A DNA stretch of 64,000 bases. It comes from Escherichia phage vB_EcoM_DalCa. The DNA lies in the sequence record NC_054908.1. One strand, written 5' to 3'. Shown here in pieces: positions 50,842-61,046 of this stretch. Made by a program: the position numbers and the translations under genes. The stretch's first letter is position 1. Each line of letters opens with the position of its first letter. The notes below the pieces were generated by a model, which was given only the letters and a program-made list of their open reading frames with translations, was not told where the DNA came from and ran no database searches.

Positions 50842-53800
50842 ATGGCCGAGATTAAAAGAAAGTTCAGAGCAGAAGATGGTCTGGACGCAGGTGGCGATAA
50901 AATAATCAACGTAGCTTTAGCTGATCGTACCGTAGGAACTGACGGTGTTAACGTTGATTACTTAATTCAAGAAAACACAGTTCAGCAATATGATCCAACT
51001 CGTGGATATTTAAAAGATTTTGTAATCATTTATAATAATCGTTTTTGGGCAGCAACGGATAATATTCCAAAACCTGCTGGAAATTTTAATAGAATTCGTT
51101 GGAAAGCATTACGTACTGATGCTGTATATACAACCGTATCATCTGGACCGTATCAATTAAAATCCGGAGAAGCAATTTCAGTAGATACATCAGTTGGTAA
51201 TGACATTGAGTTTACTTTACCACCTTCTCCGCTCGATGGAGAAACAGTAATAATTCAAGATATCGGTGGAAAACCTGGTATAAATCAGGTTAAAATAAGT
51301 TCTTCAAATCAGAGCATTGTTAATTTTAGAGGTGAACAAGTACGTTCAGTTTTAATGACTCATCCAAAGTCACAGATGGTATTCATTTTTAATAATCGTT
51401 TGTGGCAAATGTATATTGCTGATTATAGCAGAGAAGCTGCGATTGTTACTCCATCGACTGCGTATCAAGCACAATCTAATGATTTTATCGTACGTAGATT
51501 TACTTCTGCTGCACCAATTAATGTTAAACTTCCGAGATTTGCTAATCATGGCGATATTATTAATTTCGTTGATTTAGATAAACTGAATCCACTTTATCAT
51601 ACAATTGTTACTACATACGATGAAACGACTTCAGTACAAGAAGTTGGAACTCATTCCATTGAAGGCCGTACATCGATTGACGGTTTCTTGATGTTTGACG
51701 ATAATGAGAAATTGTGGAGATTGTTTGACGGGGATAGTAAAGCACGTTTACGCATTATAACAACTAATTCAAATATTCGTCCAAATGAAGAAGTCATGGT
51801 ATTTGGCGCGAATAATGGAACAACCCAAACAATTGAACTTCAGCTTCCGACTGATATTTCTGTTGGTGATACTGTTAAAATTTCCATGAATTACATGAGA
51901 AAAGGACAAACAGTTAAAATCAAAGCTGCTGGTGAAGATAAAATTGCTTCTTCAGTTCAATTGCTGCAATTCCCAAAACGTTCAGAATATCCGCCTGAAG
52001 CTGAATGGGTAACAGTTCAAGAATTAGTTTTTAACGGTGAAACTAATTATGTTCCAGTTTTACAACTTGCTTATATAGAAGATTCTGATGGAAAATACTG
52101 GGTTGTACAGCAAAACGTTCCAACAGTTGAAAGAGTCGATTCTTTAAATAATTCTACTAGAGCAAGATTAGGCGTAATTGCTTTAGCTACACAAGCTCAA
52201 GCAAATGCTGATTTAGAAAATTCTCCGCAAAAAGAATTGGCAATTACTCCAGAAACGTTAGCTAATCGTACTGCTACTGAAACTCGCAGAGGTATTGCAA
52301 GAATAGCAACTACTGCTCAAGTGAATCAGAACACCACATTCTCTTTTGCAGATGACCTTATCATCACTCCTAAAAAGCTGAATGAAAGAACTGCTACAGA
52401 AACTCGCAGAGGTGTCGCTGAAATTGCTACGCAGCAGGAAACTAATACAGGTACTGATGATACTACAATCATTACTCCTAAAAAGCTTCAAGCTCGCCAA
52501 GGTTCTGAATCATTATCTGGTATTGTAACTTTTGTATCTACCGCAGGAGCTACTCCAGCTTCTAGTCGTGAATTAAATGGTACGAATGTTTATAATAAAA
52601 ACACTAATAATTTAGTTGTTTCACCTAAAGCTTTGGATCAGTATAAAGCTACTCCAACGCAACAAGGCGCAGTAATTTTAGCAGTTGAAAGTGAAGTAAT
52701 TGCTGGACAAAGCCAAGAAGGATGGGCAAATGCGGTTGTAACGCCAGAAACGTTACATAAAAAGACATCAACTGACGCAAGAATTGGTTTAATTGAAATT
52801 GCTACACAAAGTGAAGTTAATACAGGAACTGATTATACTCGCGCAGTCACTCCTAAAACTTTAAATGACCGTAGAGCAACTGAAAGTTTAAGTGGTATAG
52901 CTGAAATTGCTACGCAAGTTGAATTCGACGCAGGCGTCGACGATACTCGTATCTCTACACCATTAAAAATTAAAACCAGATTTAATAGTACTGATCGTAC
53001 TTCTGTTGTTGCTCTATCTGGATTAGTTGAATCAGGAACTCTCTGGGACCATTATACCCTTAATATTCTTGAAGCAAATGAGACACAGCGTGGTACACTT
53101 CGTGTAGCTACACAAGTTGAAGCTGCTGCAGGAACATTAGATAATGTTTTAATAACTCCTAAAAAGCTTTTAGGTACTAAATCTACTGAAGCACAGGAAG
53201 GTGTCATTAAAGTTGCAACTCAGTCTGAAACTGTGGCTGGAACGTCAGCAAATACTGCTGTATCTCCAAAAAATTTAAAATGGATTGTGCAGAGTGAACC
53301 TACTTGGGCAGCGACTACTGCGATAAGAGGTTTTGTTAAAACTTCGTCTGGTTCAATTACATTCGTTGGTAATGATACAGCTGGTTCAACACAGCCATTA
53401 GAATCATATGAGAAAAATGGTTATGCAGTATCACCATATGAATTAAATCGCGTATTAGCAAATTATTTGCCATTAAAAGCAAAAGCCGTAGATAGTAATT
53501 TATTAGATGGTCTAGATTCGCTCCAGTTCATTCGTAGGGACATTGCACAAACAGTTAATGGTTCACTAACCTTAACCCAACAAACGAATCTGGGTGCCCC
53601 TCTTGTATCATCTAGTACTGCTACATTCGGTGGATCAGTTTCAGCAAATAGTACATTAACTATTTCTAATACTGGAACGGCAACTCGTCTGATTTTTGAG
53701 AAAGGACCTCAAACTGGAACAAACCCGGCTCAAACGATGACAGTCAGAGTGTGGGGAAATCAATTTAGTGGGGAATCAGACACAACACGTTCTACCGTAT

Positions 53801-54711
53801 TTGAAGTTAGTGATGAAACGTCTAGTCATTTTTATTCTCAGCGTAATAAAGCTGGAAATATAACATTTAATATCAACGGTACAGTAACACCGATAAATGT
53901 TAATGCTTCAGGAACATTGAATGCAAATGGTGTAGCAACATTTGGTAATTCAGTCACTGCAACTGGTGAAATTATTTCTCGAAGCGCAAATGCTTTCCGT
54001 GCTATTAACGGAAATTATGGTTTCATTGTTCGCAATGATGGATCAGTAACGAATTTTATGCTTACTGCATCGGGTGATCAGACTGGTGGATTTAATGGAT
54101 TACGTCCTTTAGCTATTAATAATGCATCTGGCCAAGTAACGATTGGTGAAAGCTTAATCATTGCCAAAGGTGCTACTATAAATTCAGGCGGTTTGACTGT
54201 TAACTCGAGAATTCGTTCTCAGGGCACTAAAACATCTGATTTATACACCCGCGCTCCAACATCTGATACTGTAGGATTCTGGTCAATTGATATTAACGAT
54301 TCAGCCACTTATAACCAGTTCCCGGGTTATTTTAAAATGGTTGAAAAAACTAATGAAGTGACTGGACTTCCATACTTAGAACGTGGTGAAGAAGTTAAAT
54401 CTCCTGGTACATTGACTCAGTTTGGTAACACACTTGATTCACTTTACCAAGATTGGATTACTTATCCAACGACCCCAGAAGCACGTACCACTCGCTGGAC
54501 ACGTACATGGCAGAAAACCAAAAACTCTTGGTCAAGTTTTGTTCAGGTATTTGACGGAGGTAACCCTCCTCAACCTTCAGATATAGGAGCGATCCCATCT
54601 GATAATGGAATAATAGGTAATCTTACTATTCGCGATTTCTTGCGAATTGGTAATGTTCGCATTATTCCTGACCCAGTGAATAAAACTGTTAAATTTGAGT
54701 GGATTGAATAA
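50842..54711 (+). CDS. 34: Long tail fibre proximal subunit gp34
   Basis: 1289 aa; TATAAATA at 50800-50807; repeated ATETRRG.A.IAT motifs. Confidence 0.9.
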   Translation: MAEIKRKFRAEDGLDAGGDKIINVALADRTVGTDGVNVDYLIQENTVQQYDPTRGYLKDFVIIYNNRFWAATDNIPKPAGNFNRIRWKALRTDAVYTTVSSGPYQLKSGEAISVDTSVGNDIEFTLPPSPLDGETVIIQDIGGKPGINQVKISSSNQSIVNFRGEQVRSVLMTHPKSQMVFIFNNRLWQMYIADYSREAAIVTPSTAYQAQSNDFIVRRFTSAAPINVKLPRFANHGDIINFVDLDKLNPLYHTIVTTYDETTSVQEVGTHSIEGRTSIDGFLMFDDNEKLWRLFDGDSKARLRIITTNSNIRPNEEVMVFGANNGTTQTIELQLPTDISVGDTVKISMNYMRKGQTVKIKAAGEDKIASSVQLLQFPKRSEYPPEAEWVTVQELVFNGETNYVPVLQLAYIEDSDGKYWVVQQNVPTVERVDSLNNSTRARLGVIALATQAQANADLENSPQKELAITPETLANRTATETRRGIARIATTAQVNQNTTFSFADDLIITPKKLNERTATETRRGVAEIATQQETNTGTDDTTIITPKKLQARQGSESLSGIVTFVSTAGATPASSRELNGTNVYNKNTNNLVVSPKALDQYKATPTQQGAVILAVESEVIAGQSQEGWANAVVTPETLHKKTSTDARIGLIEIATQSEVNTGTDYTRAVTPKTLNDRRATESLSGIAEIATQVEFDAGVDDTRISTPLKIKTRFNSTDRTSVVALSGLVESGTLWDHYTLNILEANETQRGTLRVATQVEAAAGTLDNVLITPKKLLGTKSTEAQEGVIKVATQSETVAGTSANTAVSPKNLKWIVQSEPTWAATTAIRGFVKTSSGSITFVGNDTAGSTQPLESYEKNGYAVSPYELNRVLANYLPLKAKAVDSNLLDGLDSLQFIRRDIAQTVNGSLTLTQQTNLGAPLVSSSTATFGGSVSANSTLTISNTGTATRLIFEKGPQTGTNPAQTMTVRVWGNQFSGESDTTRSTVFEVSDETSSHFYSQRNKAGNITFNINGTVTPINVNASGTLNANGVATFGNSVTATGEIISRSANAFRAINGNYGFIVRNDGSVTNFMLTASGDQTGGFNGLRPLAINNASGQVTIGESLIIAKGATINSGGLTVNSRIRSQGTKTSDLYTRAPTSDTVGFWSIDINDSATYNQFPGYFKMVEKTNEVTGLPYLERGEEVKSPGTLTQFGNTLDSLYQDWITYPTTPEARTTRWTRTWQKTKNSWSSFVQVFDGGNPPQPSDIGAIPSDNGIIGNLTIRDFLRIGNVRIIPDPVNKTVKFEWIE

Positions 54712-54719
54712 GAGGTATT

Positions 54720-55835
54720 ATGGAAAAATTTATGGCAGAGTTTGGACAAGGATATGTCCAAACACCATTTTTATCGGAAAGCAATTCAGTAAGATATAAA
54801 ATAAGCATAGCGGGTTCTTGCCCGCTTTCTACTGCGGGGCCATATGTTAAATTTCAGGATAATCCCGTTGGAAATCAAACATTTAGTGCAGGTCTTCATT
54901 TAAGAGTTTTTGACCCTTCTACGGGAGCATTAGTTGATAGCAAGTCATATGCTTTTTCTGCTTCAAACAATACAACATCTGCCGCTTTTGTCAGTTTCAT
55001 GAATTCTTTGTCAAACAATAGACTTGTTGCTATATTAACTAGCGGAAAGGTTAATTTTCCTCCTGAAGTGGTATCTTGGTTAAGGGGAGCAGGAACTTCA
55101 GTTTTTCCATCAGATTCAGTATTGTCAAGATTTGACGTATCATATGCTGCTTTTTATACTTCTTCTAAAAGAGCTATTGCATTAGAGCATGTTAAACTAA
55201 GTAATAGAAAAAGCACAGATGATTATCAAACTATTTTAGATGTTGTATTTGATAGTTTAGAAGACGTCGGAGCGACAGGATTTCCAAAAAGAACTTATGA
55301 AAGTGTAGAGCAATTCATGTCAGCAGTTGGTGGAACTAATAACGAAATTGCGCGATTGCCAACTTCAGCTGCTATAAGTAAACTTTCTGACTATAATTTA
55401 ATTCCTGGTGATGTTCTTTATCTTAAAGCACAGTTATATGCTGATGCTGATTTACTTGATCTTGGAACTACAAACATATCCATTCGTTTTTATGATGCAT
55501 CAAATGGATATATTTCCTCGACCCAAGCTGAGTTTACTGGGCAAGCTGGGTCTTGGGAATTAAAAGAAGACTATGTAGTTGTTCCAGAAAACGCCGTAGG
55601 ATTTACGATATATGCACAAAGAACTGCTCAAGCAGGTCAAGGCGGCATGAGAAATTTAAGTTTTTCTGAAGTATCAAGAAATGGCGGCATTTCAAAACCT
55701 GCCGAATTTGGCGTCAACGGTATTCGCGTTAATTATGTCTGTGAATCGGCTTCACCTCCAGATATAATGGTACTTCCTACACAAGCCTCTTCTAAAACTG
55801 GCAAAGTGTTTGGACAGGAATTTAGAGAAGTTTAA
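54720..55835 (+). CDS. 35: Long tail fibre hinge protein gp35
   Basis: 371 aa; order 34-35-36-37. Confidence 0.85.
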   Translation: MEKFMAEFGQGYVQTPFLSESNSVRYKISIAGSCPLSTAGPYVKFQDNPVGNQTFSAGLHLRVFDPSTGALVDSKSYAFSASNNTTSAAFVSFMNSLSNNRLVAILTSGKVNFPPEVVSWLRGAGTSVFPSDSVLSRFDVSYAAFYTSSKRAIALEHVKLSNRKSTDDYQTILDVVFDSLEDVGATGFPKRTYESVEQFMSAVGGTNNEIARLPTSAAISKLSDYNLIPGDVLYLKAQLYADADLLDLGTTNISIRFYDASNGYISSTQAEFTGQAGSWELKEDYVVVPENAVGFTIYAQRTAQAGQGGMRNLSFSEVSRNGGISKPAEFGVNGIRVNYVCESASPPDIMVLPTQASSKTGKVFGQEFREV

Positions 55836-55897: not shown

Positions 55898-56548
55898 ATG
55901 GCTGATTTAAAAGTAGGTTCAACTGTGGGTGGATCTGTCATTTGGCATCAAGGAAATTTTCCATTGAATTCAGCCGGTGACGATGTACTCTACAAATCAT
56001 TTAAAATATATTCAGAATATAATAAACCGCAGGCAGCTGATAACGATTTCGTTTCTAAAGCTAATGGTGGTACTTACGCCGGTCCAATTACTATTAATTA
56101 CGGGGTAAATAGTTATCTTCAATTAAGTAATAATGAAACCCCTATCCGAATTCGTTCTGGTGGCGGCACTGGTAATACTCTTGTAGTTGGCGGCTCTTCC
56201 GGTGGTATTAGTTTTAGACCTGCAGGTAGTGAAATCACTACTGGACAAATTACTATTACGCCAGAAGGTTTGACAACATTTACCAGGGCTGTAACGGCTC
56301 CATCGGTAACTGTTACATCTACTCCTTCCGCAGCATCTGATGTTACTCGCAAAGATTATGTTGATGGAGCAATAAATACTGTTACAGCAAATGCAAACTC
56401 TAGGGTATTACGCTCTGGAGACACTATGACAGGAAATTTAACTGCGCCAAACCTTTTTTCACAGAATCCTGCATCTCAACCTTCACACGTTCCACGATTT
56501 GACCAAATCGTAATTAAGGATTCTGTTCAAGATTTCGGCTATTATTAA
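55898..56548 (+). CDS. 36: Long tail fibre distal connector gp36
   Basis: 216 aa; terminator and TATAAATA upstream. Confidence 0.85.
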
Positions 56549-56556
56549 GAGGACTT

Positions 56557-59523
56557 ATGGCTACTTTAAAACAAATACAATTTAAAAGAAGTAAAACTGC
56601 AGGTCAACGTCCTGCTGCTTCAGTATTAGCCGAAGGTGAATTGGCTATAAACTTAAAAGATAAAACAATTTTCACAAAAGATGACTCAGGTAGTGTTATA
56701 GAATTAGGTTTAAAATATGGAGGAACAATTGATGGTTCTTTAACTGTTAATGGAAACATAATTGGAAATTTAACAGGTAACGCTGCAACTGCAACGAAAT
56801 TAAAAACAGCACGAAAAATTAATGGTATATCCTTTGATGGGTCAAAAGATATCACGCTAACTCCATCTGACATAAATGTCAATAGCACAACGTTTATAAA
56901 AAATAACGGCGAATTACCTGTTGATGCTAATTTAGATGAGTATGGGCCTGTTGAAGAATATCTTGGAGTTTGGTCGAAAGCAACTTCAACCAACGCTCAA
57001 CCAGCAAATAAATTTCCAGAAGAAAATGCTGTAGGTGTTCTAGAAGTATTTGTGGCCGGTCAATTTGCTGGTACTCAGAGATATACAACTAGATACGGAA
57101 ATGTTTATATTCGTTCCTTGACTGCTACATGGAACGGAGTAAACGGTCCGTGGAGTGCGTGGCGAAATATTCAATCTGGTACTCGTCCACTGTCAACAAC
57201 GATTGATCTTAATGATCTAGGAGGCGCTGAACACCTTGGTTTGTGGCGAAATAGTTCAAATTCCATTGCTACCTTTGACAGAAATTTCCCAGAAGAAGGA
57301 TCGTCCGCTCAAGGACTTTTAGAAGTATATGAAGGTGGAAACTATTCTCGCACACAGAGATATACGACCAGATTTGGTGTTGTTTATACTCGTTGTCTTG
57401 CTGCTGCGTGGGATGCTTCTGCGCCTAAATGGGGACCTTGGCAACAAGTCGGTAATGTCACACCGGCGACTTTCTATGACGGAGATCTGAATGATTTTAA
57501 AACTCCTGGGTTATATAATATTTTAGGCACTGATGCCGTTATTAACTGTCCTACCGGTGAAGGTTTACCAGCCGTTATTGTTGGTTTGCTGGAAGTTAAA
57601 CAGCGTGCTTCTGGTGGTGCTATTTTCCAAAAATTTACTACTGCCGGAACGGGTGCAACTACTCGCGATCGTATTTTTGAGCGTGCATATACTGGTGGTG
57701 TGTGGGGTGCATGGAACGAAGTATATACATCTTATTCCCTGCCAATTACTTTGGGTATGGGTGGTATTAAAACTCAATTAGCGGAGTTAGATTGGCAAAC
57801 CTTTGATTTTGTCCCTGGTAGTATGTTTAGTGTTCCTTTGAACAAAATAAAGAATATGCCAGCAAATATGGATTGGGGCACGATTGATGGAAACCTGGTT
57901 ATGTTTTCCGTTGGTCCTAGCGAACACACTAGCACAGGACGTACTGTTCAGATTTGGCGCGGCACCGTATCCCAGACAAACTACCGTTATTTTGTCGTTC
58001 GTGTGTTCGGTAATTCTGGAAATAGAACTTGCACAGTTCGTCGTGTTGTTCTTGAAGACGGATCACATACTTGGACTGCTAAACAAGATTTTAATGGCGC
58101 AGTTAACTTTAACTCTACTGTTAACCTTAATAACACTACCACATTTAAAACAGAAGTTAAATTTCGCTCATTGAATGCATTCCGTATGTATGGCGGAAAA
58201 TTTGGTACATTTTTACGTAATGATGGAGAGAGTCTTTATATTCTTTCCACCGACGAAGATGATCAAGATGGAAACTTTAATACAAATAGACCTTTCCGTT
58301 ATGAATTAAGAACTGGTGATGTTACTTTGGGTGGTGCTAGTGGTGCTAACGTTTTAAAATTAAAACGTGATTCTCTCACCGCATTTTTTGGCGGTGATAT
58401 TAACATTAAAGGCATGATGACTTTTGACGCCGGACGTTTAGGATCACGAGATTATTTTAAATTTAACCATTGGGGTGATAGTAATAATGCGCGTGATAAC
58501 ATTATTCAGTTAGAAGACAGCAAAGGCGCTCATTTTTCCACTGAACGTACTTTAGCGACTGGTGCAATTAAGACTAAATTTTTTGGTGAAATTGAATCCG
58601 ATGGTAAATTGGTTATTAAACGTCCGGGTGATTCTATTGTATTATCAACAACTGCTAGTAATTCTTTGCATATTCGCGGTGATATAGACGGGACTGGTAA
58701 CTGGTATATTGGTAAAGGTGGTGCTGATAATGGATTAGCGTTCTATAGTTATGCTACTAATGCTGGTGTATACATTACAAACGCAGGAGATATCTCGCTA
58801 AGTCCAAAGGGTGCCGAAATGGCTCAGGTCAATAACGTTCGATTATATGTTCATGGTGAACGTTGGACCGCTAGTCAACCAGGTGATTGGGGCAGTCAGT
58901 GGCAAGTGGAAGCGCCAATATTCGTCGATCATGGTTATGTTGGACCAGATAGCTATTATCCAATTATTAAAGGAAGAAGTGTAATCACCAATCAAGGGTT
59001 TGTAACTGCCGTCGATCTTGGTATTCGTCGTGTCCCTAACAATTGGGGGCAAGCAATTATTCGTGTTGGATCTGCAGAGGCATCGCCAGCGGCTGGACAC
59101 CCTAACGCGGTATTTGAATTTCATTACGACGGTACTTTCTATTCTCCTGGTAATGGTAACTTTAACGATGTGTATATTCGTTCCGATGGTCGTCTTAAGA
59201 TTAATAAAAAAGAGCTAGAAAACGGAGCACTTGAAAAAGTATGCCGACTGAAAGTTTATACATACGATAAGGTTAAGTCTATTAAAGATCGTAGTGTTAT
59301 TAAACGTGAAGTTGGTATTATTGCTCAGGATCTTGAAAAAGAATTACCGGAAGCTGTGTCTAAAGTTGAAGTTGATGGATCTGATGTTCTGACAATTTCT
59401 AACTCCGCTGTGAATGCTCTTTTAATTAAGGCTATCCAAGAAATGAGCGAAGAAATTAAAGAATTAAAAACGCCTTTCTTCACTAAAATTGCTCGCAAAA
59501 TTAGTAAATATTTTAAATTCTAA
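56557..59523 (+). CDS. 37: Long tail fibre distal subunit gp37 with C-terminal self-cleaving chaperone-like domain
   Basis: 988 aa; N-terminus [19 protein letters not shown] typical of fibre proteins; SDGRLK motif about 113 aa from the C-terminus. Confidence 0.9.
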
Positions 59524-59529
59524 CAACAA

Positions 59530-59548
59530 GGGGGCAACGCCCCCTTTG
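59530..59548 (+). terminator. Hairpin after gene 37 (GGGGGC-aac-GCCCCC)
   Basis: 6 bp GC stem followed by TTTGG; just upstream of the gene 38 RBS. Confidence 0.5.
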
Positions 59549-59558
59549 GAGATAAATT

Positions 59559-60359
59559 ATGGCAGTAGTTGGTGTTCCTGGTTGGATTGGTAGTTCATCC
59601 GTAAATGAAACAGGACAACGATGGATGAGTCAAGCGGCTGGTCAATTAAGATTGGGTGTTCCTTGCTGGATGAGTCAATTTGCAGGTCGCTCACGAGAAA
59701 TTATTCATACACTTGGAGCAGACCATAACTTCAATGGTCAATGGTTCCGAGATAGATGTTTTGAGGCCGGTAGTGCACCTATAGTGTTTAATATTACAGG
59801 TGATTTAGTATCATATTCTAAAGATGTTCCTTTATTCTTCATGTACGGGGATACGCCTAATGAATATGTTGTTCTTAATATTCATGGTGGTGTTCATATG
59901 TGGGGTCGTGGTGGTAATGGTGGATACACTCACTCGGGAGGCGACGGTAACGGTACACAAGGCGGTCATGTTATTCAAAATGATATCGGTGGACGGCTTC
60001 GTATTTGGAACTACGGTGTTATAGCTGCTGGCGGTGGCGGCGGTGGTGGTATTGCATATCGTCCACACTCAGGGGCAAACTGGCAAGATATCGGTGGCGG
60101 TGGTGGTCGACCTTTCGGTGGCGCTGGCGGTGGCGGTTATTCCGGTGGTGCTGCTTCGTATGAAGGTCCGGGTGGTGGTTATGACTATGGTAACGCACAC
60201 TCCGGCGCAGGTGGTAATGCTGGTGCTGCTGGTCAGAATGCATGGTCTGACGGCGGTAAAGTTCTTAAAGTTGGTGTTGGTGGTGCGTCTGGTCATGCAG
60301 TGTTTGGGTCTTCTCCAACTTGGGGTGCTGTTGGAACAATTTACGGACCAAGAGTATAA
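59559..60359 (+). CDS. 38: Receptor-recognising adhesin gp38, T2-type with glycine-rich motifs
   Basis: 266 aa; several poly-Gly stretches (GGGGGGG, GGGGG, GGAGGGG) separated by variable segments. Confidence 0.85.
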
Positions 60360-60389: not shown

Positions 60390-61046
60390 ATGGCAGCACC
60401 TAGAATATCATTTTCGCCCTCTGATATTCTGTTTGGTGTTCTAGATCGCTTGTTCAAAGATAACGCTACCGGGAAGGTTCTTGCTTCCCGAGTAGCTGTC
60501 GTAATTCTTTTATTTATGATGGCGATTGTTTGGTATAGGGGAGATAGTTTCTTTGAGTACTATAAGCAATCAAAGTATGAAACATACAGTGAAATTATTG
60601 AAAAGGAAAGAAATGCACGCTTTGAATCTGTCGCCCTGGAACAACTCCAGATAGTTCATATATCATCTGAGGCAGACTTTAGTGCGGTGTATTCTTTCCG
60701 CCCTAAAAACTTAAACTATTTTGTTGATATTATAGCATATGAAGGAAAATTACCTTCAACAATAAGTGAAAAATCACTTGGAGGATATCCTGTTGATAAA
60801 ACTATGGATGAATATACAGTTCATTTAAATGGACGTCATTATTATTCCGACTCAAAATTTGCTTTTTTACCAACTAAAAAGCCTACTCCCGAAATAAACT
60901 ACATGTACAGTTGTCCATATTTTAATTTGGATAATATCTATGCTGGAACAATAACCATGTACTGGTATAGAAATGATCATATAAGTAATGACCGCCTTGA
61001 ATCAATATGTGCTCAGGCGGCCAGAATATTAGGAAGGGCTAAATAA
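60390..61046 (+). CDS. t: Holin T
   Basis: 218 aa; single N-terminal TM segment and large periplasmic domain; position after 38. Confidence 0.9.
   Translation: MAAPRISFSPSDILFGVLDRLFKDNATGKVLASRVAVVILLFMMAIVWYRGDSFFEYYKQSKYETYSEIIEKERNARFESVALEQLQIVHISSEADFSAVYSFRPKNLNYFVDIIAYEGKLPSTISEKSLGGYPVDKTMDEYTVHLNGRHYYSDSKFAFLPTKKPTPEINYMYSCPYFNLDNIYAGTITMYWYRNDHISNDRLESICAQAARILGRAK

Follow-up and report, generated by a model that had tools for sequence, protein, structure and literature searches.

A Peptidase S74 chaperone domain, very probably self-cleaving, at the C-terminus of the distal long-tail-fibre subunit gp37 of Escherichia phage vB_EcoM_DalCa

The long-tail-fibre locus of Escherichia phage vB_EcoM_DalCa raises the question of whether gp37 ends in a self-cleaving chaperone that is removed before gp38 binds the fibre. 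We addressed this question computationally within a window of 64,000 nucleotides from sequence record NC_054908.1, and all nucleotide positions given here are those of the window. The locus is a long-tail-fibre block of a T-even phage, with the g34-g35-g36-g37-g38-t order seen in T2 and fPS-2. Open reading frames for a gp34-like protein of 1289 aa (50842..54711) and for gp35 of 371 aa (54720..55835) are followed by gp36 of 216 aa (55898..56548; Pfam Phage_T4_gp36), gene 37, gene 38 and a T holin recognized by its Pfam family match (60390..61046). Gene 37 (56557..59523, forward strand) is an open reading frame of 988 aa plus stop that encodes the precursor of the distal long-tail-fibre subunit, with a full-length mass of 108 kDa. 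The g37-g38 DNA is 98.3% identical to that of the Tequatrovirus Escherichia phage ph0021, where it is annotated 'long tail fiber protein', and 91-96% identical to that of many other Tequatrovirus genomes.

The preliminary description had located the motif SDGRLK about 113 residues from the C-terminus of gp37. The motif occurs once in the protein, and from its serine, S876 (codon tcc, nt 59182-59184), there are exactly 113 aa to the end; the broader pattern SD.R.K is likewise found only once in the 988 aa. YTYDKV and the second string of 15 letters quoted in the same description are both present in gp37. The predicted scissile bond R875-S876 (codons cgt tcc, 59179..59184, forward strand) was placed from the sequence and from position 1 of the Peptidase_S74 profile PF13884. 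Cleavage here would leave an N-terminal piece of 875 aa and 95.3 kDa ending in NDVYIR, the computed length of which equals the 875 residues that had been proposed for the fibre portion, and a C-terminal piece from S876 to the stop of 113 aa, 12.8 kDa and pI 9.3. The extent of the predicted mature gp37 (residues 1-875; 56557..59181, forward strand) is given by the position of S876 and by the tip sequence N(D/N)VYIR, which is common to the gp37 proteins of DalCa, T2, RB7, ZN18 and fPS-2. The domain in question occupies the last 113 of the 988 residues, at the extreme C-terminus of the distal subunit.

What this C-terminal piece is was answered by profile and sequence searches. Pfam Peptidase_S74 (PF13884) matched gp37 at residues 876-934, covering profile positions 1-57 of 58 and starting exactly at S876, with an E-value of 1e-11 (45.4 bits) when the whole protein was the query and 3.3e-13 (50.2 bits) for the 113-aa piece alone; the curated gathering cutoff of the family is 22 bits. 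A match to Peptidase_S74 or chaperone profiles had been named beforehand as the check on this region. A sequence search of the PDB with residues 801-988 retrieved S16 gp37 (6F45_A, E 2e-5) and the tail fibre in 8JOV, and a profile search of the PDB based on 16 relatives returned S16 gp37 (6F45) at 7.6e-11 and the ICA domain of MyRF (7DC3) at 2.3e-4, and gained the GA-1 neck-appendage chaperone (3GUD). In the resulting alignments SDGRLK lies opposite SDRRIK (6F45), SDERLK (8JOV) and SDERHK (3GUD), with Ser, Asp, Arg and Lys common to all, and the alignment to 7DC3 begins at the Asp, one residue past the serine. The residue opposite S876 is, in 3GUD, the one that opens the GA-1 chaperone chain and, in S16, the second Ser of DLNVS^SDRRIKK (the caret marking the cleavage site). 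A tblastn search with the 113 residues found 1347 matching phage records, nearly all of which cover at least 80% of the query. An intramolecular chaperone domain of the Peptidase S74 family ('chaperone of endosialidase') makes up residues 876-988 of gp37. The resemblance to autoproteolytic chaperone modules that had been noticed from the letters was borne out, as the Pfam, PDB sequence, PDB profile and predicted-fold matches were all to S74.

The fold of the domain was modelled with AF2 as a monomer, using a shallow alignment of 16 sequences, and the model had a pLDDT of 80; a large protein search with gp37 residues 861-988 gave 21 matches, mostly fragments from Enterobacteriaceae assemblies. 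Residue n of the modelled construct corresponds to gp37 residue 860+n. The monomer model comprises an alpha/beta core, a beta-hairpin and a long C-terminal helix, and it matches solved S74 intramolecular chaperones only. The Peptidase_S74 core (residues 876-934; 59182..59358, forward strand), delimited by PF13884 and by the AF2 secondary structure, contains the SDGRLK loop, a helix at 891-897, strands at 900-906 and 914-921, and a second helix at 923-929. It is followed by a short beta-hairpin (residues 934-947; 59356..59397, forward strand) built from construct strands E74-79 and E82-87. From the fold match we infer that this hairpin corresponds to the 'tentacle' hairpin seen in the chaperones of T5 and K1F. 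The long helix (residues 949-985; 59401..59511, forward strand; H89-125 in the construct) is matched in the alignments by the terminal helix in 6F45, 8JOV and 7DC3; by analogy with T5 and K1F, its three copies in a trimer are predicted to pack into the chaperone's coiled coil. The comparisons of both hairpin and coiled coil draw on the published architecture of the T5 chaperone (PMC4690869).

The catalytic motif of the family is present in gp37. S876 is the first residue of the domain, and K881, the predicted general-base lysine (59197..59199, forward strand), lies five residues past it, giving an S-x4-K spacing identical to that of K1F S911/K916 and T5 S1264/K1269. All T2-type relatives whose sequence extends across the site have both residues. 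The K1F positions S911, K916 and R897 were read from a direct translation of the endosialidase gene, which gives IVT-S911-NGER-K916, and we take S911 and K916 to be the published catalytic pair. In the T5 L-shaped fibre protein pb1 the scissile bond is T1263-S1264; autoproteolysis is lost in the S1264A mutant, and the serine is activated by K1269 (PMC4690869). Autocatalysis was established from Ser-to-Ala mutants expressed in E. coli, in T5 as well as in a comparable chaperone domain, and R1250, located 14 residues upstream of the T5 serine and contributed by the neighbouring chain, was described as a folding-sensor arginine (PMC4690869). K1F has R897 at -14, the position matching T5 R1250. 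No counterpart of the sensor arginine was found at -14 in the gp37 sequence, where the residue is Y862; the arginines nearest to the site are R836 and R875, the latter at P1 and invariant in the VYIR^SD sequence of T2-type gp37 proteins. Because gp37 has no arginine at -14, the geometry that triggers its cleavage may differ from that of T5 and K1F.

The chaperone of gp37 also carries a basic and aromatic tail of 17 residues (972-988; 59470..59520, forward strand), delimited by its conservation among gp37 relatives. The tail comes after the coiled-coil helix, has an amphipathic 3-4 spacing, and is conserved in the gp37 proteins of fPS-2, RB7 and ZN18 but absent from T2 gp37; more distant tblastn matches end near residue 96-97 of the 113, short of the tail. 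By this distribution, it is a subtype-specific extension of the chaperone. Thus gp37 departs slightly from the S74 archetype in two respects, having a P1 arginine without an arginine at -14 and a 17-residue tail after the coiled coil. One could imagine that the T2-type gp37 chaperones constitute a mechanistic sub-variant of S74 in which the P1 arginine replaces the -14 sensor, and that in the RB7/fPS/DalCa subgroup the basic tail adds a function, such as binding to a membrane or partner during fibre assembly or control of the hand-over to gp38, although we consider this proposal unlikely.

Comparison with known systems showed that the closest precedent is found in the fPS phages, for which cleavage at DVYIR^SDGRLKI has been predicted (Salem et al, 2021; PMC7917993). 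Salem et al (2021) contains no virion proteomics of gp37. The cleavage-site sequence of fPS-2 gp37 is identical to that of DalCa, its chaperone domain is 98.2% identical, and the g37-g38-t order is the same. The two proteins, of 1018 aa in fPS-2 and 988 aa in DalCa, are closely similar over their last ~290 residues, whereas their N-terminal and central parts are mosaic and largely unrelated. The gp37 proteins of T2 and T6 are reported to undergo C-terminal cleavage before gp38 caps them (Trojet et al), and proteolytic processing of T2 gp37 is attributed to Drexler, Riede and Henning (1986), as cited in PMC3157838. T2 gp37 (AP018813, 1341 aa) has NVYIR^SDIRLK at residue 1243 and, like DalCa, it places the S74 domain at the extreme C-terminus with an adhesin gene, gene 38, downstream. 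Its C-terminal piece differs in being 99 aa rather than 113 aa long and in lacking the 17-residue tail, and identity over the aligned C-terminal region is 45%. In S16, gp37 is reported to cut off its own last 113 residues at DLNVS^SDRRIKK, thereby exposing the docking surface for gp38 (PMC7917993). The S16 gp37-gp38 tip (6F45; Dunne et al, 2018) resembles that of DalCa in having a chaperone of 113 residues and a homologous gp38 (E 3.8e-43), but the sequence before the site is DLNVS rather than DVYIR, and the arginine is at -6 rather than at P1. The S74 archetypes, the chaperones of K1F (3GW6) and of T5 pb1 (4UW8), are only 10-12% identical to that of DalCa, which is shorter (113 aa compared with 154 in K1F and 133 in T5) and has a much shorter 'tentacle' hairpin. 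Finally, MyRF (7DC3) is a membrane-bound animal transcription factor and not a virion fibre, and its ICA domain is similar because S74 domains descend from a common ancestor, not because the biology is shared.

Outside the chaperone, gp37 and its neighbours have several further features. Residues ~125-395 (56929-57741) contain three tandem copies of a module of ~85 residues with the pattern LNDxG...G.W...NFPEE..GLLEV...QRYTTR.G.VY.R...W..W..V; the first copy is 41% identical to the second and 25% identical to the third. Self-BLAST of gp37 reported no repeat pairs, Pfam had no match to the module at E<=0.01, and a PDB sequence search with the repeated N-terminal region had none. The copies look like repeated knob-type fibre domains. 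The hexapeptide NVYIRS, which almost equals the DVYIR^S of the cleavage site, occurs inside the first of them (residues 181-186, 57097-57114), and was rejected as a second S74 site since no D-x-R-x-K follows it. In the middle of gp37, residues 518-581 (58108-58299) match Pfam Gp34_trimer (PF21446, E 2.9e-13), which is the C-terminal trimerisation domain of gp34, a match consistent with the sharing of modules between proximal and distal fibre subunits. Residues 58-112 of gp35 (54891-55055) match Pfam PF15711, ILEI (interleukin-like EMT inducer/FAM3 fold), at E 8e-8 and 33.1 bits, exceeding the curated cutoff of 27 bits; one would not expect a family of this name in the hinge protein of a phage fibre. 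Immediately past the stop of gene 37, ahead of the Shine-Dalgarno sequence of gene 38, lies a GC hairpin, GGGGGC-AAC-GCCCCC (59530-59544), with a folding energy of -14 kcal/mol but a z-score of only -1.9 against shuffled sequences. A scan of this spacer called no terminator, because the T-run is short.

Gene 38 (59559..60359, forward strand) encodes a tail-fibre adhesin of 266 aa with Pfam matches to GP38 (E 1.1e-67) and Gp38_N (E 3.2e-19), and its PDB matches are to PP01 gp38 (9V85, E 2.6e-65) and to S16 gp38 (6F45_D, E 3.8e-43, residues 5-263). By these matches, gp38 is an adhesin of the T2/S16 type, predicted to dock on gp37 through its N-terminal domain and to bind the receptor with a glycine-rich one. 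A gp37 tip of the T4 type was rejected on the same Pfam and PDB matches, as this gp38 is of the adhesin type and not of the T4 chaperone type.

The identity of the domain, its fold, its catalytic motif and the adhesin type of gp38 are established in this analysis, and we regard it as very probable that gp37 residues 876-988 are a self-cleaving S74 chaperone that is released from a fibre of 875 residues, which is then capped by gp38. In the proposed sequence of events, three nascent gp37 chains would be put in register by their C-terminal domains through the alpha/beta core and a three-helix coiled coil, and the chaperone trimer would then nucleate and template the folding of the trimeric, beta-structured tip of the fibre. 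After the tip has folded correctly, K881 would activate the hydroxyl of S876 for attack on the R875-S876 bond in every chain, thereby releasing the chaperone trimer of 113-residue chains from the mature 875-residue fibre. The exposed NDVYIR tip would be capped by one gp38 molecule through a tryptophan-bearing N-terminal helical domain; docking through such a domain with conserved tryptophans has been described for S16 gp38. The order of these events, the autocatalysis and the release of the chaperone are proposed by analogy with T2, S16, T5 and K1F.

The same observations could be read in other ways. Resemblance by chance or through low complexity, with no functional domain behind it, has next to no probability, being refuted by Pfam E-values of 1e-11 to 3e-13, by the 1347 homologous records and by a fold match restricted to S74. 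Another reading is that an S74-like domain might help trimerisation and yet stay uncleaved on the fibre, with gp38 binding elsewhere or to the chaperone itself. Cleavage of DalCa gp37 is, after all, a prediction, and the protein lacks an arginine where T5 and K1F have their sensor. However, Ser and Lys are intact in gp37 and invariant in the T2-type relatives spanning the site, T2, which has the VYIR^SD.RLK site in common with DalCa, is reported to be cleaved, and in S16 the surface to which gp38 docks is exposed only once the chaperone has been released, so that permanent retention of the domain is very unlikely.

It could also be argued that gp37 does lose its C-terminal piece but that a protease of the host or the phage cuts it off, with no autocatalysis involved, as an arginine at P1 (R875) would suit a trypsin-like enzyme and the original work on T2, as cited in the later literature, established processing rather than its mechanism. 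We consider this most unlikely. The region is a full member of the S74 family in which the catalytic motif is conserved, and autocatalysis in that family was demonstrated with the Ser-to-Ala mutants of T5 and of a similar domain. The preferred reading remains that gp37 cleaves itself at R875-S876.

The S74 domain of DalCa gp37 is an ordinary one: the family is known, as is this site, and finding it brings no new biology. The mechanism of S74 chaperones has been known since 2007-2010. That T2-type gp37 is processed at its C-terminus has been on record since 1986. The significance of the domain lies in annotation and engineering, in that the mature receptor-binding fibre is predicted to end at R875. 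Thus, in fibre swapping, in work on gp38 docking and in virion proteomics, a gp37 of 95 kDa and a released fragment of 12.8 kDa would be expected.
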